Assembly (NCBI GenBank): GCA_046261875.1
Contig: JBHENW010000024.1
Span: forward strand, 955 to 64,954
DNA length: 64,000 bases
Direction of reading: 5' to 3'
Source: Thermoanaerobaculia bacterium
GTDB lineage: Bacteria; Acidobacteriota; Thermoanaerobaculia; UBA5066; Gp7-AA6
This document shows positions 6,798-58,842 of the stretch, piece after piece. The stretch's first letter is position 1, and every line of letters begins with the position of its first letter. The notes under the pieces are model-generated. The model made no database searches and was not told where the DNA came from. It saw nothing but the letters and a program-made list of their open reading frames with translations. The translations under genes and the position numbers were made by a program.

Positions 6798-9700
6798 TCA
6801 TGAGGCGGCCCCGGGCAGCCCGGCTGTCTCGGGCTGAGCGCCCAGGGTCACGACGACCTGGTGCTCGACGCCGTCGTCGGCGAGCGGTATGGCGCCGTCC
6901 CGCGACGGCGTGGGGGAGCCGTCCACCTCGACGCGGGCGATGCCTCGCGTGACGCCGTGCGGGTTCTGCACTCGGACCCGGTACCGCGCCGAGTGGTACT
7001 GGAACGTCAGTTCGAATCCGGGCCAGGCCCGCGGGATGCACGGATCGAGCTGGAGCGTCGAGCCCCGCAGGCGAAAACCGAGGATCCACTCGAGGCCGGC
7101 GCGGTACATCCAGCCGGAGGAGCCGGTGTACCAGGTCCACCCGCCCCGTCCGACGTGCGGAAACTCGGCGTAGATGTCGGCTGCGGCGACGTAGGGCTCG
7201 ACTTTGTACCGATAGAGCCCCGCGCGGGTGCTCGCGTGATTGATCGGGTTCAAGATCCCGAAGAGCTCGCCCACCTTGTCGCCCTCGCCGAGCGCCGCGA
7301 AGGCGATGACGGCCCAGAGCGCCGCGTGCGTGTACTGGCCCCCGTTCTCGCGGACGCCCGGCAGGTATCCCTTGATGTAACCCGGATCGAGCGGGCTGCG
7401 GTCGAACGGCGGCGTGAAGAGGAGCACGAGCCCGTCGCCGCGCCGCACGAGGTACTCCTCCAGCGCCGCCATCGCCCGCTGCCGCCGCGCGGGATCCGCG
7501 GCGCCCGAGATCACGCCCCAGGACTGCGCGATCGAGTCGATGCGGCACTCCGTGTTCGAAGCCGAGCCGAGCGGCGTGCCGTCGTCGAAATAGGCCCTCC
7601 GGTACCAGTCGCCGTCCCACGCCTCCCGCTCGAGGGCGACCTTGAGGAAGTCCACGTGTTGCCGCCAGCGCTCGGCCCGGTCGCGATCGCCCCGCGCCTC
7701 CGCGAGCTTCGCGAGCTCCCAGAGGTTGGCGTGGAGGAACCAGGCCATCCAGACGCTCTCACCCCGTCCCTGGTGGCCGACCCGGTTCATCCCGTCGTTC
7801 CAGTCTCCCGCGCCCATGAGCGGCAGTCCGTGCGGGCCCACCTCGAGGCGCGCGTCGAGCGTCCGGGCGCAGTGCTCGTAGAGGGTGGCCGTCTCCTTCG
7901 AGACGGACGGGGCGAAATAGGCCTCGTGATGGTCCTTCTCCAGCGGAGGCCCTTCGAGAAACGGGATTAGCTCGTCCAGCACCGCGGCGTCGCCCGTCAC
8001 TTCGATGTAGTGCGTCACGGCGTAAGGGAGCCAGAGGAGGTCGTCGGAGATGCGCGTCCGCACCCCCTTTCCGGAGGGGGGGTGCCACCAATGCTGCACG
8101 TCCCCTTCGCGGAATTGCCGCGCCGCCGCGCGCAGCAGGTGCTCGCGCGCGATCTCGCGGCGGGCGACCGTCAGCGCCATGACGTCCTGCAGCTGGTCCC
8201 GGAAGCCGTACGCGCCTCCGGCCTGGTAGAACGCCGAGCGAGCCCAGATGCGGCAGGCCAGGGCCTGATAGAGGAGCCAGCGGTTCAGCATGAGATCCAT
8301 GGAGCGATCCGGAGTCCGCACCTGGACCGTGCCGAGGAGCACGTCCCAGAGGGCGCGCACCTTCTCGAGCGACTCCGAGGAATTCTGGGAGCGGAGCTGC
8401 TGGACGACCGCCCTCGCCGATTCCGCGTCCCGCGCCTGCCCGATCGCAAAGACGACTTCGATCTCCGCGCCGGCCGGCAGCCGGACGGGCTGCTGTAGCG
8501 CGGCGCAGGGATCGAAGCCGGCGCCGATCCTCCCAGAGAGCTCCTTGCCCCGCGCGAGCGCCGCGGGGCGGTCGAGCGTCCCGTTGCGCCCGAGAAACTC
8601 CGTCCGGTCCGCGGTCCAGGCCGTCTGCCGTCCCGCCAGATCCGCAAAGGCCACGCGCCCCCGAAATTCTTCGTTCCACGGATTCCTCGCGAAGAGGGCG
8701 CCCGTCTGGCGGTCCAGCTCCGTGACGAGATACGGCGCCGAGCCGCTTCGGGCAGACCCGAGCACCCACTCGACGTAGCCCGTCACGGTCAGCCGGCGGA
8801 AACGATCCGAGCGGTTGCGCAGTCTGAGCCGCGAGACCTTCGCCGGGACGTCGGTCGGCACGAAGAGGGTCAGCTCGAGTGCGATGCCGTGGCTCTCGTG
8901 CTCGAACACGGTGTAGCCCTGTCCGTGCCGGATCACGTAAGGCCATTCCTCGCGGATGGGCAGGGGCGTCGGCCCCCAGATCTCGCCGCTCTCCTCGTCG
9001 CGGACGAAGAGCGCGTCTCCGGGAGGATCGGAGACGGAATCGTTCGACCATGGCGTCAGCTGGTTCAGGCGGCTGTTCTCGGCCCAGATGAATCCGGAAC
9101 CCGACTCGGACACCTGGAAGCCGAACTCCGGGGTCGTGATGACGTTGATCCATGGAGTCGGCGTCCACTGGCCTTCCCCGAGCACGGTGACGTACTCGCG
9201 ACCTTCGGCTTCGAAGCCCCCCAGGCCGTTGAAGAACTCGAGCATGAGCCGCGGCGGCGGGACTTCGGCGGGCGGCTGCACCGGCGCGACCGGCCGCGCC
9301 GGCGTCGTCGCGGGCGGCTGGGCCCGCATGAGGCGGACGACCTGCTCCGCGAGGGCGCCGTGTCGCGAGAGCAGGATGGCGCGGGACGCCGCGCGCAGGA
9401 GATCGCGGCTCTCGGGATCGAGCGACTCGCCCTTGAGGACGAAGATGCCGCCGCGGCCAGGATGCGGGTCTTGCCCGGCCGCCGCCTGCGCCGCCCGGAC
9501 GAGCGATTCGATCGCGCCCTGGAGGTCGCCCGCGTAAGAGTGCGCCTGCTCGTTGACGATCACCAGATCGACCACGAGCCCTTTGAGGCGCCAGTAGTGA
9601 TGCGCGCGGAGGAGCTGCCGGACGATCTCACGATCCTCGCTGTGGTCGATGCGCAGGAGCACGATCGGCGCGTCCCCCGAGATGCCGTGCCCCCAGAGCG

Positions 9701-12700
9701 CCGAGGCGCCCCGCGTGTTGCGCTGGAGCAGCTCCGGCGAGGCGCGCAGCGTCGGATCGAAGTAGAGGACCCGGGTGGCGAGCCGCTGGAAGAGATGCGC
9801 CTCGTCCCCGCTGATCCCGAGATGCCGGAGCTGGACCTGCGCCTGGGTCCAGGCGAGCGTCGCGGTGCGCTCGAAGGCGGCGGTATCCCGGTACTTGTCC
9901 GCGGCCCCGACGAGCGCCTCGCGGTCCTTGCCGGCGAGGGTCGTGAAGGTGATGCGCGCGGTAGCGCCCGGAGCCAGCCGCACGCGCCGGTGGATGCTGA
10001 AGATCGGGTCGAGCACCGGGCCGGCCGTGTTGGACAGGGGATGGCCGTCGTGGACGGCCGCCGGGTTGCGGATCGTCCGGCCCCTGCCGAGGAAGCGCGC
10101 CCGATCCGTCTCGTACTGCGGCGCCCCGACGCTCTCCCCTTCGACGCTCACGACGTGCGCAGCCCAGATGCGCTCCTCCTCCTGGGAGCGCGGGCGTCGC
10201 GTCGCGAGGAGGCCGTCGAGCCGCGGGACGTACTCGGTCTGCACGAAGAGGTTCGAGAACGCCGGGTGGGAGAGGTCGGCAGCAGCGGGCGCCAGCACGA
10301 TCTCCGCATAAGAGGTCACCTCGATCTCCCGCGGGCGCACGCCGAGGTTGGTCAGGGAGACCTGCCGCAGCTCGGCGTCGTCCTCGGGGGAGACGAGGAC
10401 CTCGAGCATCGTGGCGATCGTGCCGTCGCGCCGGCGGATCTCCGCGCGGTCTTCGGAATAGGCCACCTCGTAACTGTCGGCTTCCCGGCCGGCGGGCTGA
10501 TACCCGGCCGACCAGACCTCCCCGCTCGCCGCGTCGCGCAGGAAGACGTAGCTGCCCCACGCGTCGCGCGTGACGTCCTCCCGCCAGCGGGTGACGTCCA
10601 GGCCCCCCCAGCGGCTGAACCCCGAGCCCGCGGCGGTGATCATGACGGCGTATCTCCCGTTGGAGAGCAGGTGGGCGCGCGGGGTCGGATCGTGCGGCGA
10701 CCGGAAGCTGCGCAGGACGGGCGGGATGAAATCGCGCACGTGCAGGTGCGTCTGCACTTCCTCTGCCCGGGGCCGGGCCACGGCGACGCCCCGCGGAGTC
10801 CGCTCCTGCAGGAGGAGCTCGGCGGACCGCACGACCGCATGGGCGTGGAAACGTTCGCGCATGATTCCCGACCGCAGGACGTTGGCGAGCGCCACGATCG
10901 TCATTCCCTGGTGGTGGGCCATGTGGGCGCGCACGACCGTGACCCGTTGCCCTTCCTGAACGCGGGCCGCCGTGAAGTCGAGGGCTTCGTAGAAGCCGTA
11001 CGGACCCGCCGCCCCGGCTCTCGCCAGGCGGCGGAAGTTTTCGACGGACTCCGCCGGCGCGATCATCGCCGCGAGCGCCGTGGCATAAGGCGCCACGACG
11101 AGGTCTTCGGAGAGGCCGCGCTTCAGCCCGAGCCCGGAAACACCGAAGTTCGAATACTGGTAGGTCAGCTCGATGTCCCGGGCGCCGTAGGCGGACTCGG
11201 AAACTCCCCAGGGGACGCCCCGCTCGGCGCCGTACCGGATCTGGCGGTGGACGATCAGCCGCGCGCTCTGTTCGAGCAGGCTCCCCGACGGCGACCGCAG
11301 AACGAGCTCGGGCATGAGGTACTCGAACATCGACCCGGACCAGGAGACCAGCGCCGAGCCGCGTCCCACGGGAGTCAGGGCGCGTCCCAGACGGAACCAG
11401 TGGGTCACCGGGACTTCGCCGAAAGCGACGGCGAGGAAGCTCGTGAGGCGGGCTTCCGAGGCGAGCATGTCGTAGTACCCGGAGTCCAGCCGCCCATCGG
11501 AAGGCCGATAACCGATCGAAAAGAGCTTTCGCGTCGGATCGTAGAGGAATCCGAACTCCATGACGTCGGCCATCTCCCGTACCGTGCGCGCGATGGTCTG
11601 GAGCCGCCGGGCCAGCCCGGCGCCCGCCTCGGCTCTGCGGCGCAGACCGGCGAGGATCTGCCGCACGGTCTCCGGGGTCCCCGCCGGAGAGCCCTCGACG
11701 GGGATCCTTTCCAGCGCGTCCGCCGCCTCGGCGAAGGTCTCCGGCGCTTCGGCAATCGGTGGAAGAGAAGCCTCCAGAGGCTCGAGCCGCGCTCGGATCT
11801 CCTCGGGGAAGGCCGGGGGGGAGAAAGCGCCCGTCTCCACCCACGCGGCGGACAGGAACAGGTCGCGTCGATGGCTTTCGATCCCGTCCCGGACCGCGCC
11901 CGACCAGAAAACGACTTCGGTCCATGCGGGGCCCTCCTCTTCGGCGAGGGCCTGGGAGGCGTCCACGAGAACCGCGGCGCGCGCGGCGAGATCGCCCAGG
12001 CGCCCGCGCCACTCCGCCGGGCTCCGCGGGAGGACATGCGCCATCTCCTCGATCTCCTCGAGAACGCGCTCGAGCTCGCGGGTCGTGCCGGCGCGGCCTC
12101 GCCGCTCACCGCGCGCTTCTTCGAATGCTTCGCGGGCGAGATGCAACGCATCGCCGATGCCCGCCAGTGCCTGCTCGCCCAGAGCGGGCTCCCGAAGCTG
12201 CTCGATGCACGCTTCCTGCAGCGCCAGCAGGTGCCCGGCGAGGTTCCCGCTGTCCACAGTGGACACGTACCGTGGCTCCAGCGCCGCCAGCCGTTCCGTG
12301 TCGTACCAGTTGTAGAAGTGGCCGCGGTAGCGCTCGAGCCGGCCCATGCTGGCGAGCGTCGCTTCGAGCCGCTCGACGAGCTCGAGCGTCCCGATCCACC
12401 CCAGGTCGTGGGCAGCCGCGGCCGACAGCAGATAGAGGCCCATGTTCGTCGGGGAGGTGCGGTGGGCCACGACCGGTTTGGGATCCTGCTGGTAGTTGTC
12501 GGGCGGCAGCTGGTTGTCCAACGGCGTGACGAAGGTCTCGAAGTAGCGCCAGGTCTGCCGCGCGATCCGCCGCAGGTACAGCTCCCCGGCGGGGGTCAGG
12601 CCGGGGGCATCGGCGTCTCGGGGCGGCAGGCTGATGGCCCGAGCCACCGCCGGAGAGGCCGCCCACAGGAGGAGGAAAGGCGCCGCCAGGTCGAAGGCCA

Positions 12701-15578
12701 GGGGGCGCCAGATCGCGACGGCTGCCCCGAGGGCAAGGGCGATGAGGGGCGCGGGGACCATGCGGCGGTAGAAGCCGCTCAGCTTCAGGTCCAGCCCGCT
12801 CTGCGCCTGCGCCGCGGTCACCCATTCGAGCAGGCGCCGCCGCGCGATCAAGCGGGCGAATGTGCGCACGGCGGCGTCCGTCATGAGGTACGCCTGGTAC
12901 GCGAGCAGCGTCAGGTTGATCGCCGCCTGTGAGACCGCCAGCGTCACGTCCCTGCCGAGCCCCGCGACGAAGCTTCGCTTGGAAATCCCGAGCCGGCTTG
13001 GTAAGAGCGACGCGATCAGGTGGAGCGCGCTCGGTCCCGCAATCGTGGCGACGATGAAAGAGGCCCACAGCTCCGGCGAGCCGCCCGGCAGGAGCCAGCT
13101 CGCGGCGAACGTCAGCACCGCGGCCGGCGCCGACAGCGTCCGGCGCAGGTTGTCGGCCATCTTCCACCGCGCGATGGCCGTGATGCCGCGGCGCCGACGG
13201 CCCTTCGCGTCGCGCGCGATGCCCAGGATCCATGGGAGGAGCTGCCAGTCCCCGCGCGCCCACCGGTGCTGGCGGGCGGCGGCGACTTCGTAATGGCCCG
13301 GAAAGCTCTCGAAGAGCTCCAGGTCGGATACGAGACCGGCCCGGGCGAAGAGACCTTCGAAGAGGTCGTGGGAGAGGAGGGAGTTCTCCGGCACACGGCG
13401 CGCGAGGGCCGTCTCGAACGCGTCCACCTCGTAGAGTCCTTTTCCTGTGTAGATGCCTTCCCCGAACAGGTCCTGGTAGACGTCGGAGGTCGCGAACGCG
13501 TACGGGTCGATACCCTGCGGCCCAGAAAACACACGCTGGTGCACCGTGCCGGGCCCGTGGAACGGAAGGGTCGTCGTCACGCGCGGCTGCAGCACGGCGT
13601 GCCCCTCGACGATGCGGTCCGCCGCCGGGTCGAAGACGGGGCGGTTCAAGGGGTGCGCGATCGTCCCGACGAGCCGGCGCGCGACCCCGCGGTTCAACCG
13701 CGTGTCGGCGTCCAGCGTGATGACGAAACGGACCCCGGGGGGAGGCGGCCCCGGTGACAGGAACGTCGTGTCCCGGGCGCCGCGCAGCCACCGATTGAGC
13801 TCGTGGAGCTTGCCGCGCTTGCGTTCCCAGCCGATCCACGACTTCTCCGACGCGTTCCAGACGCGGTGGCGATGGAGGAGAAGGAATCGCGGCCCCCCAC
13901 CTTGCGGGGGGGCCGGGTGGCGCGCGTTCAGCTCGGCGATCGCGGCGCGGGCGACCGCCAGCAGGAGCTCGTCCTCCGGTAGCGATTCCGACGGCGCGTC
14001 GACCCAGTCGGTCAGCAGCGCGAAGCGGATCGCCCCGTCGTCGTTGGCGAGGGCGTGGACCTCGAGGCGTCCGATGAGCGCGCGGATGTCCTCCTCGTCG
14101 GTCAAGAGAGCGGGCACCGCGACCAGCGTCGCGAGCTCCGGTGGCACCCCGTGCGCGAGCTCCAGCTTGGGAAGGCGCCTCGGCCCGATCAGATCGGTGA
14201 CGTCCCGGTTCACGACGGCCGTTGCCAGGTCGGAGGCCGGGACGAGCGCGAAGAGAGCGATCAGGAGGAGCGGGAGCCCCGTCATGCCGGTCGCGGCCGC
14301 GAGAACGACCGGCAGGGCGATGAGCGCGGCCGTCAGCACGAACACGCTCGTGACGTATCCGGGCGTGGCGAAGGCGACGAAGGCGCGCCGGAGCCAGCGC
14401 GCGGGCGGAACGCGGTACCCGAGCTCCTTCTCGAACGCCTCGCGCCCACGGGAGATCAGGTAGAAGCCGGGATCCGAGCTTCGCGCGTCCCCGCCGGCCG
14501 CGGCTCCCTCCGCCGCGGCCTCCCGGCCCTTCTCGGCGGCCCGCCGCGCGACCTCGAGCTCCGCGAGCCGGGAGCCCCGCGCCAGCTCCTCGACGGCGTG
14601 GCGATACCGGTCGCGCGTGGCGAAGTCCATTGCCGCCACGAGGGTTCCCTCGCGCAGCGCCGCTTCCACGAGGCTGACCTCCTCGAAGAAGGTCTCCCAG
14701 TCCGTCGAGGAGAGAAGGCGCATGCTCGTGATGACGTTGCGCACCGTCACGTGCGACGCGACCTGCTCCTGGTGCTCCTGCCGGACGAACTCCTCCGGCG
14801 TCGTGCCCTGCGCCGCGAGCCTCTCGTTCAGCCACGACGCGGCGGGGGTCGAGGCCGGGTCCCGGTCGCGGAGACGCTCGGCGAGTTGAACGGCGAAGGC
14901 GGTGGAGAGCGTCCCGGATTCGAGCTCGCGGAGCGCTTCGCGCGGCTTCTCGCCCGGGCCTCCGACCCCGAGGAGCACGTCGGCGAGCCGGTCGGCGCGC
15001 TCCCGGTCCGCTCGCCGCTGCACGATGTATTCGACGAGGCGGCGCAGGTTCTCGACGAGCACGAGTCGCAGCGAGATCGCGATCGCCCACAGCTCGCCGA
15101 TGGTCAGCGGCTGCACGCGCTGGTACGCCGTCACGAATCGGCGCAGCGCCTCCGCCTCGAATCGGCTGTCCGTGTGCTCGACGAACGCCCAGGCGATCCC
15201 GAGCACGCGGGGATACCCGGCGAGGGGCCCGTCCGCGAGCTTGGGCAGCTCGCGGTAATAGCTCGGCGGGAGATCTTCGCGGATCTCGCGCAGCTGCTCT
15301 TCCACGATGTGGAAGTTGTCCACGAGCCATTCCGCCGCCGGGGAGATCGCGCGCTCCTCCCGGATCGCCTGGCCGATCGCCCGGTAGGAAGCGAGCAGGA
15401 CGCGGTGGTTCTCGCGCAGCCGGGGGAGCAGCCGGCTCCCGCGGCGCTTGCCGGGCAGCACGCGATGGGTCGCGGCGAGCGATTCGGCGAACTCCTCGAG
15501 CCGCTCGAGAGAGAACAGCTCCCCGCGGATGGGCAGGTCGGCGGGATGGGCGGAGAGAAATACCGGAGGGGCGGCCAT
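6798..15578 (-). CDS. ndvB: cyclic beta-1,2-glucan synthase (NdvB/ChvB/Cgs; GT84 + GH94 domains), 2926 aa
   Basis: Size; conserved Cgs N-terminal region; multiple TM helices; GT84 region ([13 protein letters not shown]); C-terminal GH94 cellobiose-phosphorylase-like domain ([23 protein letters not shown]..., [13 protein letters not shown]..., [14 protein letters not shown]). Single uninterrupted 8.8-kb ORF, ATG start. Confidence 0.9.
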   Translation of the reverse strand: [2926 protein letters not shown]

Positions 15579-24638: not shown

Positions 24639-25001
24639 TCAGCGGCCGTGCTTTCGCACGGCGACGACGTACTCCAGGATGTCGTCGAGCTCCTCGGGGC
24701 TGATTTCCTCCCTGGAGAACCTGGGCATCGCTCCGAGTCCCGCGCGCACCTGGGTCCGCATCAGGAACTTCGGCGCCGGCTTGTTAGAAAGGGCCGGGCT
24801 GAACCCGAACTCCCCGCCCGTATGGCACTGGTTGCAGTGCCTCATGTAGAGGACCTCGCCGCGCTGGAGCTGGAGCGTATTCAAAGGGATCGGGCCGACC
24901 ACGGGCTCGCTGCGCCGGACGGAGCATCCGGAAAAGAGAACAGCGGCCACAGCGGCGGCCGCGAGCGCGGCGAGCGCCCATCCGGTCCGGTTCTTCCTCA
25001 C
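24639..25001 (-). CDS. small mono-heme cytochrome c lipoprotein
   Basis: Signal/lipobox (ALAALAAAAVAAVLFSGCS), heme-binding CNQCH motif, distal Met (GAMPRF). GTG start at 25001 overlaps the upstream SGDH stop (GTGA). Confidence 0.65.
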   Translation of the reverse strand: MRKNRTGWALAALAAAAVAAVLFSGCSVRRSEPVVGPIPLNTLQLQRGEVLYMRHCNQCHTGGEFGFSPALSNKPAPKFLMRTQVRAGLGAMPRFSREEISPEELDDILEYVVAVRKHGR

Positions 25002-26524
25002 GGTTTCGGCTCCGCGATGCTGGAGCGGCCCGTGATCCGCCAGAGCACGCCCGTGTTCTGCCGCGGCTGGGGGTTCTCGCCGATCGTCATGACCCCGAAG
25101 TCCACGACGTAGAGCGCCGAGCCGCTCGGGTCGAAGCGGGCGGCCACGGGCCGCTCGAGACCGCCCCCGCCGATGCGCGAAGCGGGCCCGTTCTTGGGAC
25201 CCTTGTTGGCGGCGAAGTCCTTCACGACACCGGTCCGCGGATCGACGCGAACGACCTTGAAGCCCACCGGGGAAAGGGTCTTTCCCGTGCCCGGCGACAT
25301 GTCCCCGAAGAGCGCGACGAACAGTTGTCCGACGTGCCCGAAGGCTTCGCTGCGAGAGAAGTCGAAGCCGTTGGCGGAGGAATGGACTCCGAAAAGAGCC
25401 GAAGGCTTCGGCGGCTTGCCGGGATGGGACGAGAGGAGAAGCTCCGGCTTCGGGCCCCCCGGCGGATCGAAGTGATCGCCGTCGTCGAGTCGCCGGTCCC
25501 CGTGGTGGTCGGGCCAGCCATACCAGGCTCCCGGGGTGATCTCCCAGAGAACGTCGCCGGTCCCGAACACGGGACGGCTGCCGCGGACGTCGTAGCTGTT
25601 CTCGGTCACGTAGAGTCGCCCGGCCGGCGAGAAGGCCAGGCCGAACGGGTTGCGGAGCCCCCAGGCGACGAGCTCGGGCCGGCCACCCTCCGCGGGCACC
25701 TTCATCACGGCGCCCGTGCAGGGAATCTCCCCCTTCACGATCTGGCCCGCCCGGGAGGGCGTTCCGAACGGCAGATACGCGCCGGTCTGGACCGCCGCAT
25801 TGGAACCGGGCTGGAGGACGTTCGGCGTCTCGAAGTTCCTCCCGGCGAGGGTCACCTCGCGGCAGGGAACGTCGTGAAATTTCGGGTGACGGGCGAGCCA
25901 CCCGAACTTCGCGCTGTCCTCTCCGACGATCCCCGAATTCGTCGCCGTGCCCTGGCCGAAGTAGATCCAGCCGTCCGGGCCCACCGCGGGGCCGTTCGTG
26001 TGGTGGTCGCCGACGCTCGGAAGCTTCTCGACGAGCGTCGAGATCTCTCCCCCGGGAGTGATTCGCAGGATCCGTCCGCCGTCGCGCTCGCCTCCTTCGG
26101 CGACGTAGAAGCTCCCGCCATGGAAAACGACGCCGTTCCACGGGCCGTTGTTCCCGCCGGAAGCGACGGTCGTCGTCCGGCCGTCTTCCTCGACGCGCAA
26201 GAGCCGCGGCGTGGCCCACACCTCCCCGTAGGAGTAACCGGCCTCGACCACGTGCGGGCGGCCGGACGCGTCGAAGGCGACGGCCGAAGGGAGGTTCAGC
26301 CCCTGCGCGATCGCTTCGATCCCGTAGCCTTCCGGGAGCGCCACGCCATCGGGGTGGACGACGCGAGGACCCTGGAAGGTCGTCTGCCCGCCCCCCGAAG
26401 ACGCCCGCATGCTGAAGCACGCGGAGGCGGCGATCACGCCGGGAAGCAGGATGCCGAGCGCAGCCGACCTCCACCGGAATCGCGTCTCAATCGCCATGAC
26501 GCGCACGGGAAGTGCAACGGCCAT
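24998..26524 (-). CDS. PQQ-dependent sugar/sorbosone dehydrogenase-like beta-propeller protein (SGDH family), paralog 2
   Basis: Paralogous to 15704..17227 (LAWGLRNPFGLAFSPAGRLYV, GAWYGWPD, YVVDFGV); N-terminal signal region (LGILLPGVIAASAC). Start could also be the Met at 26497. Confidence 0.7.
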   Translation of the reverse strand: MAVALPVRVMAIETRFRWRSAALGILLPGVIAASACFSMRASSGGGQTTFQGPRVVHPDGVALPEGYGIEAIAQGLNLPSAVAFDASGRPHVVEAGYSYGEVWATPRLLRVEEDGRTTTVASGGNNGPWNGVVFHGGSFYVAEGGERDGGRILRITPGGEISTLVEKLPSVGDHHTNGPAVGPDGWIYFGQGTATNSGIVGEDSAKFGWLARHPKFHDVPCREVTLAGRNFETPNVLQPGSNAAVQTGAYLPFGTPSRAGQIVKGEIPCTGAVMKVPAEGGRPELVAWGLRNPFGLAFSPAGRLYVTENSYDVRGSRPVFGTGDVLWEITPGAWYGWPDHHGDRRLDDGDHFDPPGGPKPELLLSSHPGKPPKPSALFGVHSSANGFDFSRSEAFGHVGQLFVALFGDMSPGTGKTLSPVGFKVVRVDPRTGVVKDFAANKGPKNGPASRIGGGGLERPVAARFDPSGSALYVVDFGVMTIGENPQPRQNTGVLWRITGRSSIAEPKP

Positions 26525-26588: not shown

Positions 26589-28640
26589 TCATTCCGGCGG
26601 CATGCGAGTTCCCCAGTAGTGCGCTTCGAAGAAGTCGTCGTACTTCTTCTTCGTGAGGTGCTCGAGCATGCCGGCGACGGTGCGCGTCGATCCGAACTTC
26701 CAGCGAAAGCTCTTCTGGTACGACTTCATGAAGGTCAGGAACATCTGATCGCCGAGGTCTCTGTGGAGCGCCGCGAGCAGGTACGCGCCCTTGTCGTAGA
26801 GCAGGCCCGTCCGGATCGAGAACTCGGTGACGAAGTCGCGCGGCACGGACACGCGGTTGGCGAGCGGAATCGGCGCGGCCTCGGTGGCGAACCTCGCCCG
26901 GGAGCCCCAGTGCCTGAGGAGGCGGTTGTACATGGACTGGCCCTTGAACGCCCGGAGGAAGATCGCCGCGCTGTACTGGGCAAATGACTCGGTGATCCAT
27001 TGCTCCTCGAAGCTCGGCATTTTTACGACGTGTCCCCAGTACTGGTGCGCGATCTCGTGGGCGAATCGCTCGTTGATCCCCTGAGAGAAGAGCTGGTTCA
27101 AATCCCCGATGTACGGGTTGAACGCCTCCTTCGTGATGAACATGACCGCGGGGGGAGCCTGCCCGAACCCGTAGGAGTTGATCTCGATGATGTTGAACTC
27201 GGGAAAAGGAAAGGGGCCGAGGAATACCTGGTAATACTCGATGATCCCGAAGGCCAGGTCCAGGAGCTGCTTGGCGGCGCGCTGGTTGGCCATGGCGTAG
27301 GTCGCGACCCGAACGGTCACGCCGTTGCGGGATTGCTCCTCCAGCGCGTACTTCCCCGCCAGGATCACGCCGAACTGGACCGGCTGCTCGACCCGCGTCT
27401 CGAGCACGTTGACGTCCCCCTCGACCCGCCGGCTCTTCGTGACGCCCGGCGCGAAGGGGACGAAGGGCTTGGGCACCCGGACCGTCGTCGTCAGCGTGTA
27501 GTACTGCGCGCGCAGCTCGGGCTGTGGGAACCACGGCTCGACGCCGAGGAGCCAGTAGTTGTCTCCGCCGGGACGGATCAGGAAGTCGCCATCGATACGG
27601 AACTCGAGGGTGAAGGGCCTGTCCGCGGCGGCCGGCTCCGGAAGGGACACGAGGACCTCGTCGCCGGCGTGATGGAAGGGCAGCTCCTTTCCCCCGGCGT
27701 CCCGCACCGACCGCAGACGGAAAACGCGCGGCTGGAGAGCGCCCGTGCCGACGACGGCGTAGGTCGTGTTGTACAGGTCGAACCGGAACGCGCGGCGCGC
27801 CCTCCCGATGGGCACCACGGTCTCGGTGGCGACGAGCTCCGCGTCTCTTCCGCCGGACGCGGTCAGCTCCAGCCGGACGTCCGTGAGCGTCCAGAGCGGG
27901 TCCGGAACGGTTTTCCGGTCGCGCCCGAGCGGCCGCTCGGCCAGGGTGACGGGATAGAGATAGCGGCGCGTCTCGGCGTCCGTGGATTCGCTCCGCCGCA
28001 GCACGGCAAGCGACTCCTCGCGCCGCTCGAAGTCGTCGTAAACGTAGCGCAGGTCGTCGCCTCCCCCGACTTCCGCGACCACGAGACGGGAGCCGGGGAC
28101 GGAGCGCTGCAGGACGAGGAGGTGCGAAAGCGGGCTCCCCCGAGCACGGCGGAACTTCTCGACGTGATCGCGGAAGGCGCCGCCCAGATCGATTCCGGGC
28201 CCGCCGGCTCCGGGCTCCGGTCGCGAACCGGCGCCCTCTGCGATCCACAGCAGACGCCGGAATCGGCTCCGCAGCGTCAACCGGCCATCGGCCTTTTCGA
28301 CGGCCACCCCGGAGTTCTTCTTCGCGTTGAACAGGACGACGGGATGCTCGACCGGGTCCGAAGCGTTGCACTCGAAGCTGCCTTCTCCGCTGAAGAAGAG
28401 CCCGACGATCTCGTCTCCCGCCTTCACCGGCGCCGCGTGACCGGACCGAAGAAGGAGGGTGACGTTCCCCGAGGCGAGTGAGACGCCGCTGACGGGCGCG
28501 GCGGCCCCCGCCAGCCGCAGCGACTCGAAGCGCTCGATCTCTCCCTGGAAGTCCGCGGCGAGGACCGCGGGGGCGGCGAGCGCCAGGCCCGCGAGGACCG
28601 CAAGGGACCGCCGTCGAGGATTCACTGGGTTTTGCGCCAT
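26589..28640 (-). CDS. M1-family zinc aminopeptidase (aminopeptidase N-like), secreted
   Basis: Signal peptide; GAMEN-like region; zinc-binding FAHEIAHQYWGHVV (HExxHx18E with downstream WITESFAQY). Confidence 0.85.
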   Translation of the reverse strand: MAQNPVNPRRRSLAVLAGLALAAPAVLAADFQGEIERFESLRLAGAAAPVSGVSLASGNVTLLLRSGHAAPVKAGDEIVGLFFSGEGSFECNASDPVEHPVVLFNAKKNSGVAVEKADGRLTLRSRFRRLLWIAEGAGSRPEPGAGGPGIDLGGAFRDHVEKFRRARGSPLSHLLVLQRSVPGSRLVVAEVGGGDDLRYVYDDFERREESLAVLRRSESTDAETRRYLYPVTLAERPLGRDRKTVPDPLWTLTDVRLELTASGGRDAELVATETVVPIGRARRAFRFDLYNTTYAVVGTGALQPRVFRLRSVRDAGGKELPFHHAGDEVLVSLPEPAAADRPFTLEFRIDGDFLIRPGGDNYWLLGVEPWFPQPELRAQYYTLTTTVRVPKPFVPFAPGVTKSRRVEGDVNVLETRVEQPVQFGVILAGKYALEEQSRNGVTVRVATYAMANQRAAKQLLDLAFGIIEYYQVFLGPFPFPEFNIIEINSYGFGQAPPAVMFITKEAFNPYIGDLNQLFSQGINERFAHEIAHQYWGHVVKMPSFEEQWITESFAQYSAAIFLRAFKGQSMYNRLLRHWGSRARFATEAAPIPLANRVSVPRDFVTEFSIRTGLLYDKGAYLLAALHRDLGDQMFLTFMKSYQKSFRWKFGSTRTVAGMLEHLTKKKYDDFFEAHYWGTRMPPE

Positions 28641-28739
28641 TCTATGCCGGCGGGCAGGCGGCGGGACCGGAGGACTCCAAACCTCCGCGCGAGCTCGATC
28701 TCTACGCAGGCGCCGAAAGGGATCTGCGCCGCGACGGCT

Positions 28740-29717
28740 TCAGGAGAAGCGTACGGCTTCCGTGTTGCCGCCGCAGACGATGACTCCGACACGCTCCCCC
28801 GCGCGCGGCACGTAGCGGCCGGAGATCAGCGCCGCCATGGCCGCCGCCCCGCCGGGCTCGGCGGCGATCCGGGCGGTGTCCCGGAGGACCTGCTGGGCGC
28901 GCCGGATCTCCTCGTCCTCCACGAGCAGGACGCCCTTCGCGAAGCGACGGGCGAGCGGGAACATGAACTCCCCCCACGCGGCGCGGCGCGAGAGAGTCGG
29001 CGGCGATACCGCCAGCCGGCGCATCGACCGGGTGCCCCGCCCGGAGCGCCTCGAAGGCGTCGGCGACCCCTTCGGCTCGACTCCGAGGACGGCGGCCGCG
29101 CCCCGATACCAGGCGGCGATCCCGCGGATCAGCCCGCCCCCTCCGACGGCGACGAGGATCGCGTCGAGACCCGGCGCCTGCTCGGAGAGCTCGAGCGCCA
29201 CCGTGCCCTGGCCGAGGAGCGTCTCCTTTTGGTCGTAGGCGTGGATGGCCAGCGCCCCGGAGCCGGCGGTCCCTTCCTCGCTGGCGGCGAGGGCGTCGGC
29301 GTAGAGGTCCCCGGACACGACGAGGTCGGCGCCGCACGCGAATCCGCTCGACCTTCGACGGCGACGCGGCCGTGGGGACGAAGATCCGCGCCGGGATCCA
29401 CAGCCGCATCGCCGCGTACGCCACGGCGAGCCCGTGGTTCCCGCCGGAGGCCGCGGCCACGCCCGCGACCGGGATGTGTCGCAGAAGCAGGTTGGCGAAA
29501 GCCCCGCGTGCCTTGAAGGAGCCGCTATGTTGGAGCACTCGAGCTTGAGGACGACCGTGCAGGGGTTGATCCCGAGCTCCTCGCCGCGAACCTCGAGAAC
29601 CGGCGTCCGCCGTACGTGCTCGCGCAGGATGCCGTAGGCCGCGCGGATGGCTTCCGCGTCGATGGCAGGCAGGGAAGAAGGGTTTGACAGCGGGAGGCTC
29701 GGTAAGTAAATTGGCAA
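28740..29717 (-). pseudogene. threonine/serine dehydratase-like PLP enzyme (fold type II), disrupted by two compensating frameshifts
   Basis: N- and C-terminal parts read in one frame (RTPVLEV...VVLKLE; ...ADLVVSGDLYADALAAS..., QGTVALELSEQAPGLDAILVAVGGGGLI). The PLP-lysine segment LQHSGSFKARGAFANLL...SGGNHGLAVAYAAMRLWIPARIFVP...KVERIR is encoded in the -1 frame between ~29535 and ~29340. Confidence 0.65.
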
Positions 29718-29727
29718 ATGAGCGTAT

Positions 29728-30030
29728 ATGCTTCAAGTAGGAGTGGTCAAGGCCCTCGCCAACGAGAAACGGCTGCGGATCCTCGGCTGGCTGAAGGATC
29801 CGACCCGCCACTTCCCGCCGCAGGTGTACGGAGACCTCGAGCGCGACGGCGTGTGCGGCATCTTCATCGCCCAGAAGCTCGGCGTCACGCCGCCGACCGC
29901 CAGTGAGCACCTCCGCGTCCTCACGCAGGCCGGCCTCCTCCGCGCCCGCCGCATCCGGCAATGGACGTTCTACCGGCGCGACGAGAGCAGGATTGCCGCG
30001 GTGAAACGGGCGTTTCGGTCGACATGGTAG
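29728..30030 (+). CDS. ArsR/SmtB-family transcriptional regulator
   Basis: wHTH motif ALANEKRLRILGWL...IAQKLGVTPPTASEHLRVLTQAGLL. Confidence 0.8.
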   Translation: MLQVGVVKALANEKRLRILGWLKDPTRHFPPQVYGDLERDGVCGIFIAQKLGVTPPTASEHLRVLTQAGLLRARRIRQWTFYRRDESRIAAVKRAFRSTW

Positions 30031-37787: not shown

Positions 37788-38552
37788 ATGAGCACAGGCA
37801 TCCGTACGGAGGGGGTTACAGAAACGGCGGCGCGGTTCAAGGCGAGGACGGCCGGTTTCTTCTGGCTGATGACGTTTCTGACGGGCAGCTTCGCGATGGT
37901 CGCCGGCGGGCGGCAGATCGTGGCCGGCGACCCCGCGGCCACGTCGGCCAACATCCTGGCGAACGAGTCCCTGTATCGGCTGGCGCTCACGTCCAACCTG
38001 ATCGCCGGCGCATGCTATCTCGCGGCGACGCTGCTCGTGTACGAGCTGCTCAAGCCGGTGAACAGGGGCATCTCGCTGCTCGCGGCGTTCTTCAGTCTCC
38101 TGGGCGTCGGGAGCGGTGCCGTGACCTCACTTCTCTATTTCGCTCCATTGGTCGTCTAGGGAGCGGCGCGATATCTGAGCGTCTACACGGGGGAACAGAC
38201 GCAGGCGCTGGCGCTCCTGTTTCTCGGATTGGGGGAGCAGGCCTCCGCCATCTCCTTCGGGTTTTTCGGGCTGCACTGCCTCCTCGTCGGCTGGCTCATT
38301 CTCCGGTCGACCTTTCTGCCCCGCCTCGTGGGGGCCCTGATGGCATTGGGAGGGCTGGGCTGGCTGACCCTCTGCCTCGCCAATCTGCTGTCGCCGGCGC
38401 TCGGGCAGTCTCTGATCCCGTTCATCGCGATCCCCGGCCTCATCGGAGAGCTGTCGCTGATCTTCTGGCTACTCGTGAAGGCCGTGAACGCTCAGCGGTG
38501 GAAGGAGCAGGCGATCGCATCGGCCGCCGTGACCATCCCGGAGCATGCATGA
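37788..38552 (+). pseudogene. DUF4386-family membrane protein interrupted by a single in-frame TAG at 38157..38159
   Basis: Track ORFs 37788..38159 and 38229..38552 are in the same frame; the intervening in-frame translation (GAARYLSVYTGEQTQALALLFLGLGEQASAISFGFF) is continuous DUF4386-like sequence and matches the intact paralog immediately downstream. Confidence 0.55.
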
Positions 38553-39259
38553 CGCGCACGACGAACGCGCGGCTCGCCGGCTTCACTTTCCTCTTCTACA
38601 TCGCGGCCGGCATCACCCGCATGATTCTGTCCAGCCGGGCGATGAGCGGGGAGGGGACCGCGGCAAAGCTCGAGAGCCTCGCCGGACACGCGACGGAGTT
38701 GCGCTTCATCGTCGTGCTCTCCCTGCTCATGAGCCTTTCGGCCCTGGTGCTGGGCGTGACGCTCTGGGCGATCACGCGCGAGCAGGATCCGGATCTCGCC
38801 ATGCTGGCGATGACCTGTCGCGTCGTCGAGGGCGTCAACAATGCGAGCTCGATACCGCAGACGCTCGGATTGTTCTGGCTCGCTACGGCCACCGGAGCCA
38901 ACGCGCCGGACTCCGCGGCCGCGCAGGCGCTCGCCGCGTACTTTTTCCGTGAGGGAGCGGGCGTCAGCGCAACGTTCTTCGCCGTGGGCAGCACCCTTTT
39001 CTCGTGGCTCCTCCTGCGCGGCCGGATGATTCCCGTCCCTCTGGCCTGGCTGGGCGTGGTCGCCTCGGTCCTGCTCGTCTTGCTCCTTCCCCTGCAGCTC
39101 GCCGGATCCGTCCGGTCCTTCTCCGGCGCAGTTGGCTGGCTCATGTGGATGCCCATGCTCGTGTTCGAGCTCGTGTTCGCGCTCTGGCTGCTCATCAAGG
39201 GTGTCGCCGCGCCGGCCGCCCGGCGTTCGCCTCTCAACCAACCCTCAACGGTTTCATGA
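38549..39259 (+). CDS. DUF4386-family membrane protein (intact paralog)
   Basis: MTRTTNARLAGFTFLFYIAAGI... 6 TM; ATGA overlap with the upstream gene stop. Confidence 0.6.
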   Translation: MTRTTNARLAGFTFLFYIAAGITRMILSSRAMSGEGTAAKLESLAGHATELRFIVVLSLLMSLSALVLGVTLWAITREQDPDLAMLAMTCRVVEGVNNASSIPQTLGLFWLATATGANAPDSAAAQALAAYFFREGAGVSATFFAVGSTLFSWLLLRGRMIPVPLAWLGVVASVLLVLLLPLQLAGSVRSFSGAVGWLMWMPMLVFELVFALWLLIKGVAAPAARRSPLNQPSTVS

Positions 39260-41094: not shown

Positions 41095-41472
41095 ATGAAG
41101 GGTGCCATGAGCCTGAACGGGATCTTCAACGGTTACTCCGTGGCGAGTTCCGCCGACGGAATCCCCATGGACACTTACCCGCCGGCCGCTGCAGGGACGA
41201 TCGTTTCTCTCTTCGCGCTCCTGGGGCTCTCCCGCCTCATGATCTCCTTGCTTGGTCTATTGGTCTTGGTTCGGTATCGCAGCATGATTCCGTTGATGTT
41301 CGCGTTGCTCCTGCTGGAACATCTGAGCGCAAGACTGGTTCGGTTGTTCATTCCCATCGTCAGGACCGGAACGCCACCCGCTGGTGTCATAAACCTCGCA
41401 CTCCTCGGCCTGATGATCGTTGGCTTCGCGCTATCGCTACGGCGCCAAGGCAATCTTCGAGTACAGGAGTGA
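41095..41472 (+). CDS. hypothetical membrane protein
   Basis: 3 hydrophobic helices; hydrophobic in-frame sequence continues upstream to the ADH stop without a canonical start, so the boundary is uncertain. Confidence 0.35.
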   Translation: MKGAMSLNGIFNGYSVASSADGIPMDTYPPAAAGTIVSLFALLGLSRLMISLLGLLVLVRYRSMIPLMFALLLLEHLSARLVRLFIPIVRTGTPPAGVINLALLGLMIVGFALSLRRQGNLRVQE

Positions 41473-42852
41473 CCTACGAGTGTCGTTGCCCCGTGCCCGG
41501 CGGGCCCATCGGCTCGTCGCCGGCTGTACGGCTTCCGGCTTGTCCACCTCTTCGATGCGGACATCCGAAGGCGGTCTTTCCTTCTGCAGGCGTGCCGCGG
41601 CGGCTTCGGCCTTCCGCATGACCCGGAGCACGTTGCGGCCCGCGATGCCCTCGAGCTGCTCGTCCGTGTAGCCGCGCCGGACGAGCTCGGCGAAGAGAAC
41701 GGGGGTAGGCGGCCACGCTCTCCAGGCCTTCCGGCGTGGTGGAAATCCCATCCAGGTCGGCGCCCACTCCGGCGTGCGCGGCGCCGGCCACCCGCACCAC
41801 GTGGTCGATGTGATCGGCGACGTCCTGCAGGGTCGCCCGCGGTGCGGGATTCGCGCCTTCCCACGGGGCGAGCGCCCCCTTCGTCTTCTCCGGCTGCCCG
41901 CGATACAGGGCCTTGAGGCGCGCCTCTTCAGCGTCTTTCGCGGCGTCGCGCGCGCGCACCTTCTCCGAGACGAACGCGGGCACCCACGTGACCATTTACC
42001 ACGCCGTCGTTCTCCCGGACGCGGCGCAGAACGTCATCGGGAACGTTTCGCGCGTGATCCGTGATCGCCCGCGCGGAGGAATGCGAAAAGACGACCGGCG
42101 CTGCGGTCGCGTCCAGGATGTCGTGCATCGTCTTCGGCGCGACGTGCGAGAGATCGACGAGCATGCCGAGACGATTCATTTCCGCGATGACCAGCTTCCC
42201 GAACGGGGTGAGGCCGCCGTGGACCGGATCGGCCGTCGCCGAATCGGCCCAGTCGGGTTCGCGCCGTGCGTGATCGTCAGATATCGCGCGCCCGCCGCGA
42301 AGAGCTGGGGAGAACGGCGAGTGAGTTGAGAATGGAGTGGCCGCCTTCCACTCCGATGCGCGAGGCGATCTTGCCGCGGCGATGGATGCGCACGACGTCA
42401 TCGGCGGTGCGAGCGAGCTCGAACGTGTCCGGGTAGAGCTCGCCCAGGCGGTGGACGACATCGATCTGCTCGAGGACGGCCCGCACGGCGTCCGTGCCCG
42501 TGCGCGTCGTCGGGACGTATGCGGACCAGAACTGCCCGCCGATCCTCCTCTGCCGCAGCCGCGGGATGTCCGTGTGCAGCGCGGGGGTGAGCTTGCTCTG
42601 GTCCTGCCGGATGTCCAGCTGCGCAAGATGATTCCTGACCCGCTCCTCGTACTGGGAGGGAAGGTCGTTGTGTCCGTCGATCAGCGGCACTTCGCGGAGG
42701 ATGCGGTCGATGCGCGCGTCCACGGAGTTCGTCTGGGCAGTTGCGGGAACGGCGAGAGCGACGAACAGCGTCACTCCACAGAGGACGCGCCGCCGCGTGA
42801 GCCAGCTCGACCTCGCCGTGGAGGCGGGCGTGTCATCGCGCCACGTGAGCAT
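41437..42852 (-). pseudogene. M19-family membrane dipeptidase, fragmented by at least three frameshifts
   Basis: Four ORF fragments in different frames together cover a colinear M19 dipeptidase: IDGHNDLP...[18 protein letters not shown]...IGVEGGHSI | [11 protein letters not shown]...[27 protein letters not shown]...[25 protein letters not shown] | MVTWVPAFV...LQDVADHIDHVVRVAG..HAGVGADLDGI | LFAELVRRGYTDEQLEGIAGRNVLRVMRKAE. The 41995 junction is a single extra A in an AAA run. Confidence 0.7.
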
Positions 42853-43549
42853 CGAGACGGGCCGCGCCCAGCCCAGTCGGGAAATGGTCCTTCTGCTCGG
42901 CCGCGCGCTCGACGTGCCCCTGCGCGACCGGGAACGATCTCCTGGTCGCGGCCGGCTACGCGGCCATGTACCGCGCCACCGATTCCGACGCGCCGGCCCT
43001 CGAGCAGGCGCGACGGGCGCTCGATTTCATGCCGCGCCAGCAGGAGCTTTACCCCGCCATCGTGGTCGATCGCCATTGGACGATCCTGAAGGCCAACGAC
43101 GGCGCCGTGCGGCTGGTGGGGGCCTTCGCAAACGCTTCGGCCGCGGCCGAATGGCGCGGCAACGCGAGGCGGCTCATGTTCCATCCGCCCGGCTTTCGGC
43201 CGTGCATCGTTCAACTGGGAGGCCATGGCGGCGGCGCTGATCCAGTGGCTCCACCGTGACGTCCTGGCGGGGGCTCGGCGGCGCCGAGACCCGCGGGCTC
43301 CTGGACGAGCTGCTCTCCTATCCCGGCGTGCCGCCCCGGTGGCGCACGCTTGACCTCGACGTCTCCACCGCTCCCTTCCTGGCGATCGAGTTCGAAAAGG
43401 GAGACCTCCGCCTCTCCTTCTTCTCCACCTTGACCAGCCTCGGGACCCCGCAGGACATCACCCTCCAGGAGCTCCGGATCGAGTCGTTCCTCCCGGCCGA
43501 CGCGGCGACCGAGGAGGCGTCGCGGCGTCTGGCGGGCGGATCTGAATGA
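42776..43549 (+). pseudogene. MmyB-like XRE-family transcriptional regulator, 5'-truncated and fragmented by several frameshifts
   Basis: HTH (RRRVSQLDLAVEAGVSSRHVSIETGRAQPSREMVLLLGRALDVPLRDRE) then MmyB-like ligand-binding segments in two other frames (LLVAAGYAAMYRATD...YPAIVVDRHWTILKANDGAVRLVG...FHPPGFRPCIV | EAMAAALIQWLHRDVLAG | LLDELLSYPGVPPRWRTLDLDV...LSFFSTLTSLGTPQDITLQELRIESFLPAD). Confidence 0.6.
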
Positions 43550-58219: not shown

Positions 58220-58492
58220 ATGACCTATGAACTCTCAATTACCCAGGCGCGCGCTGAGCTGACCAAGCTTCCGGAGCGGCTGGCGAAGAGTCCCGACACG
58301 ATTAAGGTGACGCGCCAAGGGAAGGCCGTTCTCGCCGTTCTGCCCTGGGAACTCTACGAGTCAATCCTCGAAACGATGGAAGTGCTGGGCGACCGCGAGC
58401 TCCTGGATTCGCTTCGCCAGAGCGAGCAGGATATTCGGCGCGGTCGCACCGCCTCCCATGAGGAGGTCGGGCGGCGACTCGGGTTGGCCTGA
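58220..58492 (+). CDS. type II antitoxin, Phd/YefM family
   Basis: MTYELSITQARAELTKLPERL...TIKVTRQGKAVLAVLPWELYESILETMEVLGD.ELL.SL, the classic Phd/YefM fold signature. Confidence 0.8.
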   Translation: MTYELSITQARAELTKLPERLAKSPDTIKVTRQGKAVLAVLPWELYESILETMEVLGDRELLDSLRQSEQDIRRGRTASHEEVGRRLGLA

Positions 58493-58539
58493 CGCCCTCG
58501 CGTACCCATCAAGTTCGCTGGACTGAAACCGCGACGGGC

Positions 58540-58842
58540 TTGCTAAAAGCCGTCGGCGACAAGCGCCATCGGAAGAAGATCTACGAAACGGCCGGCCGAC
58601 TCTCGGCCAATTCGCTTCTGCAAGGAAAACCGCTCGCGGAGGATCTGATCGGATTTCGCGGTTTGCGCGCCGTGGGCCAGCGATATCGAATCATCTACTC
58701 CGTCGACCCCGACATCGTCCATGTCTGGGCCGTGGGGGGACTGCGACGAGAGGGCTCCCGCTCTGACATCTACGAACTCGCTCGACGACTACTTCGCCAG
58801 GGTCTTATTGGGCCGTCGCGTGGACGGGGGAAAAAGAAGTGA
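58540..58842 (+). CDS. type II toxin, RelE/ParE family (annotated start is TTG; family-like sequence continues upstream)
   Basis: GKPLAEDLIGFRGLRAVGQRYRIIYSVDPDIVHVWAVGGLRREG RelE/ParE core. In-frame upstream codons encode HQVRWTETATG, resembling the RelE N-terminus, but no ATG/GTG/TTG is available there. Confidence 0.65.
   Translation: MLKAVGDKRHRKKIYETAGRLSANSLLQGKPLAEDLIGFRGLRAVGQRYRIIYSVDPDIVHVWAVGGLRREGSRSDIYELARRLLRQGLIGPSRGRGKKK

Follow-up and report, generated by a model that had tools for sequence, protein, structure and literature searches.

A PALP-family dehydratase gene on the minus strand of a Thermoanaerobaculia (Acidobacteriota) MAG contig is probably a genuine and fairly young pseudogene, a reading to which we assign, judging from the sequence, a probability of about 0.68. 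The DNA analyzed is a stretch of 64,000 nucleotides, referred to below as the window, and the gene occupies positions 28740-29717. It shows four frame changes, is colinear over its full length with intact homologues, is followed by a remnant of a RidA gene and lies among intact neighbours. We infer that its lesions arose by mutation and not in assembly, and its inactivation appears to be recent.

In the proposed course of events, the ancestor would have possessed a three-gene module composed of an ArsR-family regulator, an ACT-less PRK08246-type dehydratase and a RidA/YjgF-family imine deaminase. This module would then have decayed in the lineage of the window: the RidA gene would have lost ~400 bp, leaving a tail of ~17 codons, and four small indels of the slippage type would have arisen in the dehydratase gene: -1, then -2 within a CG repeat, -1 again, and +1 within a run of G. 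A product started at the TTG at 29717 would contain two garbled stretches in place of SFKARG, the SGGNHG loop and the GIAADSL segment.

Four frame changes in the dehydratase gene

As it stands, the minus strand of 28740-29717 presents a 325-codon ORF, here called frame A, which opens with TTG and closes with TGA. In a three-frame translation, dehydratase-like text switched back and forth between two frames. The frame changes were placed with a frameshift-aware dynamic-programming routine, using as reference the closest homologue (P0001, 321 aa, 80% identity; source, JGI metagenome 3300056388), and the exact position of each lesion was set by pattern look-ups in the DNA. P0001 was colinear with the DNA over 321 aa, with zero amino-acid gaps and four frame changes, which correspond in order to shifts of -1, -2, -1 and +1 nt. 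Because the four indels total -3, the native stop is in the same frame as the start. The features of the gene are as follows:

28740-29717, minus strand: whole dehydratase locus, probable pseudogene; frame-A ORF, TTG start at 29717, native TGA stop at 28740-28742
29538-29717, minus strand: segment 1, in frame A, from the N-terminus to ..RTPVLEVRGEELGINPCTVVLKLE (VVLKLE)
29536-29538, minus strand: lesion 1, GAG^TG, 1-nt deletion between 29538 and 29537; homologues read E-L-L/H-Q-H-S-G
29337-29537, minus strand: segment 2, shifted out of the frame of the start, (L)LQHSGSFKARGAF..AASGGNHG..SKVERIR
29337-29340, minus strand: lesion 2, loss of 2 nt (CG) from a CGCG(CG) repeat; R-I-R-A-C-G-A in homologues
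29057-29336, minus strand: segment 3, in frame A again, CGADLVVSGD..GGGGLIRGIAAWY..GVEPKGSPT
29056-29057, minus strand: lesion 3, ACGC^CTTC, 1-nt deletion
28976-29055, minus strand: segment 4, out of frame, FEALRAGHPVDAPAGGIAADSLAPRRV
28970-28975, minus strand: lesion 4, 1-nt insertion, six G where five are expected (GTG GGG GAG)
28743-28969, minus strand: segment 5, in frame A, EFMFPLA..EPGGAAAMAAL..VCGGNTEAVRFS, then the native stop codon

A preliminary description of this DNA had placed the PLP-lysine core out of frame between two frameshifts. The core is indeed displaced: SFKARG and SGGNHG could be read only in the neighbouring frame, with flanks in frame A. The codon of the catalytic Schiff-base Lys (AAG, 29514-29512) lies inside segment 2, and the frame-0 ORF over this segment covers positions 44-111 of NF006094; where this neighbouring frame encodes the Lys motif and the SGGNHG loop (29337-29537), frame A gives CSNIAAPSRHAGLSP.. 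instead. Both frameshifts had been sited correctly (~29537 and 29337-29340), and the single missing base proposed for the first agrees with the deletion found at GAG^TG. A second pair, at ~29056 and 28970-28975, had been overlooked. It encloses another out-of-frame stretch, FEALRAGHPVDAPAGGIAADSLAPRRVG (about 29056-28971), between lesions 3 and 4. The text that had been taken for a normal flank, GSPTPSRRSGRGTRSMRRLAVSPPTLSRRAAWG, is the garbled frame-A translation of this same stretch. As for the second frameshift, formerly attributed to one extra base, a 2-nt CG deletion is the simpler explanation, because the homologues are equal in length across the site and, at this point, the alignment calls for a codon of 1 nt.

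The Lys codon and SGGNHG lie in the neighbouring frame and are therefore untranslated from the only start left, the TTG at 29717, which is five codons upstream of the place where the P0001 start codon aligns with a CCG of the window. No active PLP enzyme would be possible, since the Schiff-base lysine, the SGGNHG loop and the GIAADSL segment are all replaced. The ORF stays open to the native stop only because out-of-frame stops are rare at 70% GC.

In profile searches, the repaired translation matched NF006094 with 394 bits over positions 6-309 of 310 (cut-off 331), whereas the frame-A ORF as it stands scored 228.5 bits, below the cut-off, and covered only positions 112-309. For Pfam PALP (PF00291), the scores were 198 bits after repair and 99 bits for the unrepaired ORF. 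The dehydratase signal is well beyond what chance would give. By descent the gene belongs to NF006094, given its full-length homology, the lack of gaps relative to P0001 and the conserved neighbourhood. Functional membership is a different matter: the Lys motif (S-F-K-x-R-G) and S-G-G-N-H-G fall outside the translated frame of the ORF, and whereas homologues have one continuous ORF of about 310-345 codons, colinearity here takes four frame changes.

Among the matches listed, the homologues were full-length single-ORF proteins of ~300-365 aa, none of them frameshifted, and the 10 that were aligned were colinear. With disabling lesions here and intact orthologues elsewhere (P0001 and the other matches listed), the locus would correspond to a unitary pseudogene. 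When contigs from genome and metagenome collections were scanned with the repaired protein, the relatives obtained were no more than 70% identical to it, and exact look-ups of the M1 peptidase, frame-A ORF, ArsR and ADH proteins in a contig index found the same allele in no other assembly. A tblastn search for a second PALP dehydratase copy within the 64-kb window gave only chance matches.

An ORF with no stop between its TTG and the native one, and with a net shift that is a multiple of three, could also be read as a new, selected non-PLP protein of 325 aa, in which the compensating frameshifts would be an evolutionary innovation. When the frame-A product was compared with 5.8 billion protein clusters, however, no match shared the shifted segments, and the best match was P0001 with 59% identity; the frame-A protein thus shows no sign of being a conserved entity. 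Codon usage in the shifted segments still prefers the ancestral frame. In addition, an open wrong frame is expected by chance at 70% GC, as illustrated by the 419-aa ORF that is open in frame 0 over the same dehydratase DNA. We consider that such a protein has a very slight chance of existing.

Programmed frameshifting, for which a test had been advised before pseudogene status was accepted, would require an active dehydratase to be made by recoding at each of the four sites, through either ribosomal frameshifting or transcriptional slippage. The frame does return to the native stop, site 4 is a GGGGGGA heptamer, and a GC-rich hairpin overlaps this site. However, four events of mixed sign (-1, +1 or -2, -1, +1) would be needed on each mRNA, and three of the four sites (sites 1-3) have no slippery heptamer of the XXXYYYZ type. 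The only such heptamers in the gene are AAACCCT at 29685, away from the shifts, and the G run of site 4, which is lesion 4 itself and not a conserved signal. There is no long homopolymer for transcriptional slippage, the homologues among the matches listed are ordinary single-ORF proteins, so that recoding is not conserved, and the RidA partner gene is deleted. Taken with these points, the chance that the enzyme is still produced by recoding is close to nil.

The ArsR, dehydratase and RidA genes and their neighbourhood

On the contig that carries P0001, the gene order is ADH <- ArsR <- | -> dehydratase -> RidA/YjgF (150 aa) -> M1 (683 aa) -> AAA -> Pyr_redox -> glycoamylase. The window keeps this order on both flanks, and the flanking genes common to the two contigs are those for ADH, ArsR, M1, AAA, Pyr_redox, glycoamylase, DUF1440, a TonB receptor and DUF2231. 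Between the M1 and AAA ATPase genes, the window has two extra genes relative to the P0001 contig, which encode a GSDH/NHL-like protein and a small cytochrome c (24639-26524, minus strand). The features next to the dehydratase gene are as follows:

26589-28640, minus strand: intact M1-family peptidase gene, 683 aa, the same length as its orthologue on the P0001 contig
28688-28738, minus strand: RidA/YjgF C-terminal remnant (AVAAQIPFGACVEIELA), ~17 codons in the third frame, with no start codon left
29684-29712, plus strand: predicted sigma-70-like arsR promoter, TTGACA-17-TAAATT (10/12 matches), inside the 5' end of the dehydratase gene
29728-30030, plus strand: intact, divergent ArsR/SmtB-family regulator gene, 100 aa, identical to NCBI MFN2385038.1

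MFN2385038.1 is a protein of an NCBI Thermoanaerobaculia MAG, and an ArsR of 100 aa is also encoded on the P0001 contig. The quinone oxidoreductase encoded nearby in the window is likewise identical to a protein from the MAG contig of MFN2385038.1.

A Rid-family gene directly follows the dehydratase gene in other loci as well (L011, L024, L040, L042, L043, L044, L046, L049 and L063), and an ArsR gene precedes the dehydratase gene in 12 loci (L011, L023, L024, L030, L035, L040-L044, L046 and L061). Across many Acidobacteriota loci, the ArsR-dehydratase-RidA linkage occurs in head-to-head or co-oriented form, and head-to-head starts are 10-25 nt apart. The Rid protein of L011 matches both PF14588 and PF01042.

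In the window, the stop of the dehydratase gene and the start of the M1 gene are separated by 99 nt only. Within this spacer, AQIPFGACVEIEL is the best RidA match of the window (11/13 residues identical to the L011 RidA, E=0.005), and the C-terminus of the L046 RidA reads ..VAQIPLGACVEIEMIVEV. The Rid gene has thus lost ~400 bp and kept its tail alone. A 400-bp deletion that leaves a remnant is no base-calling error. The losses of the dehydratase and RidA genes may well be functionally linked; a joint loss would be expected once one of the two turns dispensable or harmful.

The tight spacing of the dehydratase and arsR starts had previously been regarded as a sign of gene death, on the grounds that it left no room for a promoter. 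This argument does not hold, because intact relatives are also closely spaced: the gap from the dehydratase TTG (29717) to the arsR ATG (29728) is 10 nt, and the matching gap next to an intact dehydratase gene is 25 nt on the P0001 contig and ~17 nt in L046. The segment between the putative arsR promoter and the arsR ATG (TTGGCAAA..TATATG) is kept in L046. No promoter of the dehydratase gene's own was recognised; it would need to sit within arsR. An intergenic motif, TTTGCCAA / GCATATA, is common to the window (29680-29730) and L046 (480-560) and could be an operator or promoter.

Distribution of damage across the window

Codon usage was modelled on the long ORFs of the window and applied in a seven-state Viterbi pass, in which the ends of coding segments were compared with the next in-frame stop. 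A 60-nt scan for internal stretches favouring another frame was also run, from which compensated pairs less than ~15-20 codons apart could escape. These two were used instead of a GC3-phase plot, which was too coarse for the short second pair of shifts in the dehydratase gene. In the Viterbi pass, almost all of the ~60 coding segments finished within ~50 nt of their stop, and the 60-nt scan flagged one internal stretch in the whole window, namely the region of dehydratase sites 3-4. Among the ~62 genes of the window, damage was limited to the dehydratase/RidA module, an M19 dipeptidase gene, an MmyB-like regulator gene and one copy of a DUF4386 gene. The genes outside the module are as follows:

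37788-38552, plus strand: damaged DUF4386 gene, with a single in-frame TAG at 38157-38159 (..LLYFAPLVV*GAARYL..)
38498-39259: intact DUF4386 paralogue, directly downstream of the damaged copy
41461-42852, minus strand: damaged M19 membrane-dipeptidase gene, its Pfam profile spread over three frames
~42700-43549, plus strand: MmyB-like regulator gene (HTH + MLTR_LBD), divergent from the M19 gene and read in three frames

The M19 gene lacks 1 nt near 42308 and again near 42252, and it carries a surplus A near 41996 and a surplus C, within a C run, near 41702. Once these were repaired, the gene matched PF01244 with 359 bits over positions 2-319 of 319, and its metal-ligand motifs, read by eye in the repaired translation, appear intact. 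Three 1-nt insertions were found in the MmyB-like gene (near 42930, 43212 and 43270-43290). Together, these two genes form a ~2-kb tract (41.7-43.3 kb) with seven small indels.

The remaining genes showed full-length Pfam coverage, including those for the 2926-aa GH94 protein, enolase, phosphoglucomutase (PGM), PurE, the FGGY kinase, the glycerol-3-phosphate-oxidase-like DAO and the molybdopterin dehydrogenase trio. The intact gene for the 2926-aa protein (6798-15578, minus strand) contains two GH94 supersandwich domains together with GH94 catalytic and glucoamylase-like domains, and it resembles giant cyclic beta-1,2-glucan synthase or glucan phosphorylase proteins. Elsewhere, between 58.0 and 59.3 kb, GC is lower and the coding signal is weak. 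This stretch holds, at 58220-58842 on the plus strand, a gene for a Phd/YefM-type antitoxin (58220-58492) and, after it, an ORF of 100 codons without a Pfam match, possibly the toxin partner.

This distribution bears on the possibility that the dehydratase gene is intact and that its indels are local consensus errors, arising from a low-coverage or poorly polished long-read patch or from a strain-variable region. The sequence comes from a 77-kb MAG contig, and assembler, platform and coverage can each yield spurious pseudogenes (PMC11017572). Indels are many relative to substitutions, as local consensus errors would also produce, the lesions sit in two tight tracts, two of the four dehydratase lesions fall in short runs or repeats (the G run and the CG repeat), and the second patch adds seven further +/-1 indels in two adjacent genes. 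On the other hand, the eleven small indels all lie within ~3.2 kb, while the remaining ~53 kb of coding sequence, an 8.8-kb ORF included, showed no detected indel. The damage also tracks functional units (dehydratase with RidA, dipeptidase with regulator) and spares housekeeping genes, and the 400-bp RidA deletion with its recognisable remnant is no type of sequencing or assembly error. Two replacements of conserved residues, I31L and W280R, fall outside the span of the dehydratase indels. We therefore regard local error, the main rival reading, as an unlikely explanation, if one that still carries appreciable weight.

These two replacements are among five changes found in the dehydratase at residues that are at least 95% conserved among 120 homologues, the others being W150G, G199R and A219S. 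None of the five is common with P0001, and W150G, G199R (in the GGGGLIxG loop) and W280R are radical. Changes at conserved sites amounted to 5/144 in the dehydratase and 4/129 in the intact ADH used as control, so that the test is too weak given this control. The changes in ADH were all conservative, and two of them were common with its orthologue. Identity to the orthologue was 80% for the dehydratase and 84% for ADH. At rough mutation-accumulation rates, four indels correspond to some 20-40 neutral substitutions and ~3-4 extra changes at conserved sites. This rough estimate is compatible with the changes observed.

The indels of the three genes with multiple frameshifts sum to -3 in the dehydratase, 0 in the M19 and +3 in the MmyB-like gene. 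The net shift is thus 0 mod 3 in all three, which would happen by chance about 1 time in 27; it should be noted that this regularity was noticed only after the fact. Neutral decay gives no reason to expect it in all three genes, a point that speaks against the pseudogene reading. A further idea, that the open ORF of the dehydratase was kept to avoid polarity on the downstream M1 gene, was rejected because the M19 and MmyB-like genes share the net-zero shift, yet have no co-oriented downstream gene. There is also a small chance that the indels, clustered in two short tracts, were not independent neutral events, and arose instead in localised 'showers' (for example, through error-prone repair synthesis) or under selection that restored the downstream frame. 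Chance or local assembly error accounts equally well for the clustered net-zero indels.

Other points also favour decay of the locus as a pseudogene: the lesions are of several types, since a large deletion and a nonsense codon occur besides the small indels; the damage is restricted to accessory genes and functional pairs; five conserved residues are changed; and a CCG aligns with the P0001 start codon. The preliminary description had left a choice between two independent errors and a dead gene. With four lesions instead of the two then counted, a RidA remnant and localised damage, the dead gene is now the better supported of these options.

Implications and comparison with known systems

The dehydratase locus is most likely a routine case of gene decay. 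Its proper annotation is that of a pseudogene frameshifted by four lesions, and not of a recoded or novel gene, and the organism should not be credited with the serine/threonine dehydratase of the window or with the linked RidA activity. More generally, in genomes of 70% GC a long open frame is no proof of an intact gene. The case also suggests that the conserved ArsR-dehydratase-RidA module of Acidobacteriota is open to loss as a whole, in keeping with the metabolic coupling that is known between dehydratases of this kind and Rid proteins. If the indels were artefacts, the window would instead be a case of patchy consensus error in a public MAG.

Genes with programmed frameshifts, such as prfB (+1), dnaX (-1) and the transposases of the IS3 family, rely on a single shift, which takes place on a conserved slippery sequence aided by a stimulator and recurs in their orthologues. 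The window dehydratase resembles them in that its coding sequence is split over two frames. It differs from them in having four shifts of mixed sign, with neither signals nor conservation.

With the PRK08246/NF006094 dehydratases (PF00291, fold-type II PLP, no ACT domain), the repaired gene shares SFKARG, SGGNHG, GGGGL and EPGGA, and family members such as P0001 have gene neighbours in common with it. In contrast with these dehydratases, the present gene is unable to encode a family protein, its lysine loop and GIAADSL segment being out of frame.

Many annotated bacterial pseudogenes, including those with internal stops, are assembly artefacts (Cooley & Wright, 2024; PMC11017572). Such spurious pseudogenes likewise show multiple small indels in a recognisable gene, whereas the window has its lesions in no more than a few accessory genes, with a large deletion in a partner gene besides, which argues for real decay rather than for error throughout the assembly.

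Finally, RidA proteins quench the enamine/imine that PLP serine/threonine dehydratases release (PMC3565831, PMC9127364). The adjacency of dehydratase and Rid genes in relatives of the window is reminiscent of the pairing of IlvA/TdcB with RidA that is known from 2-aminoacrylate stress in Salmonella enterica (PMC3565831, PMC9127364). Unlike archetypal RidA, the Rid gene of these relatives belongs to the YjgF_endoribonc (PF14588) branch. In keeping with such a pairing, the module in the window appears to have lost both members together.
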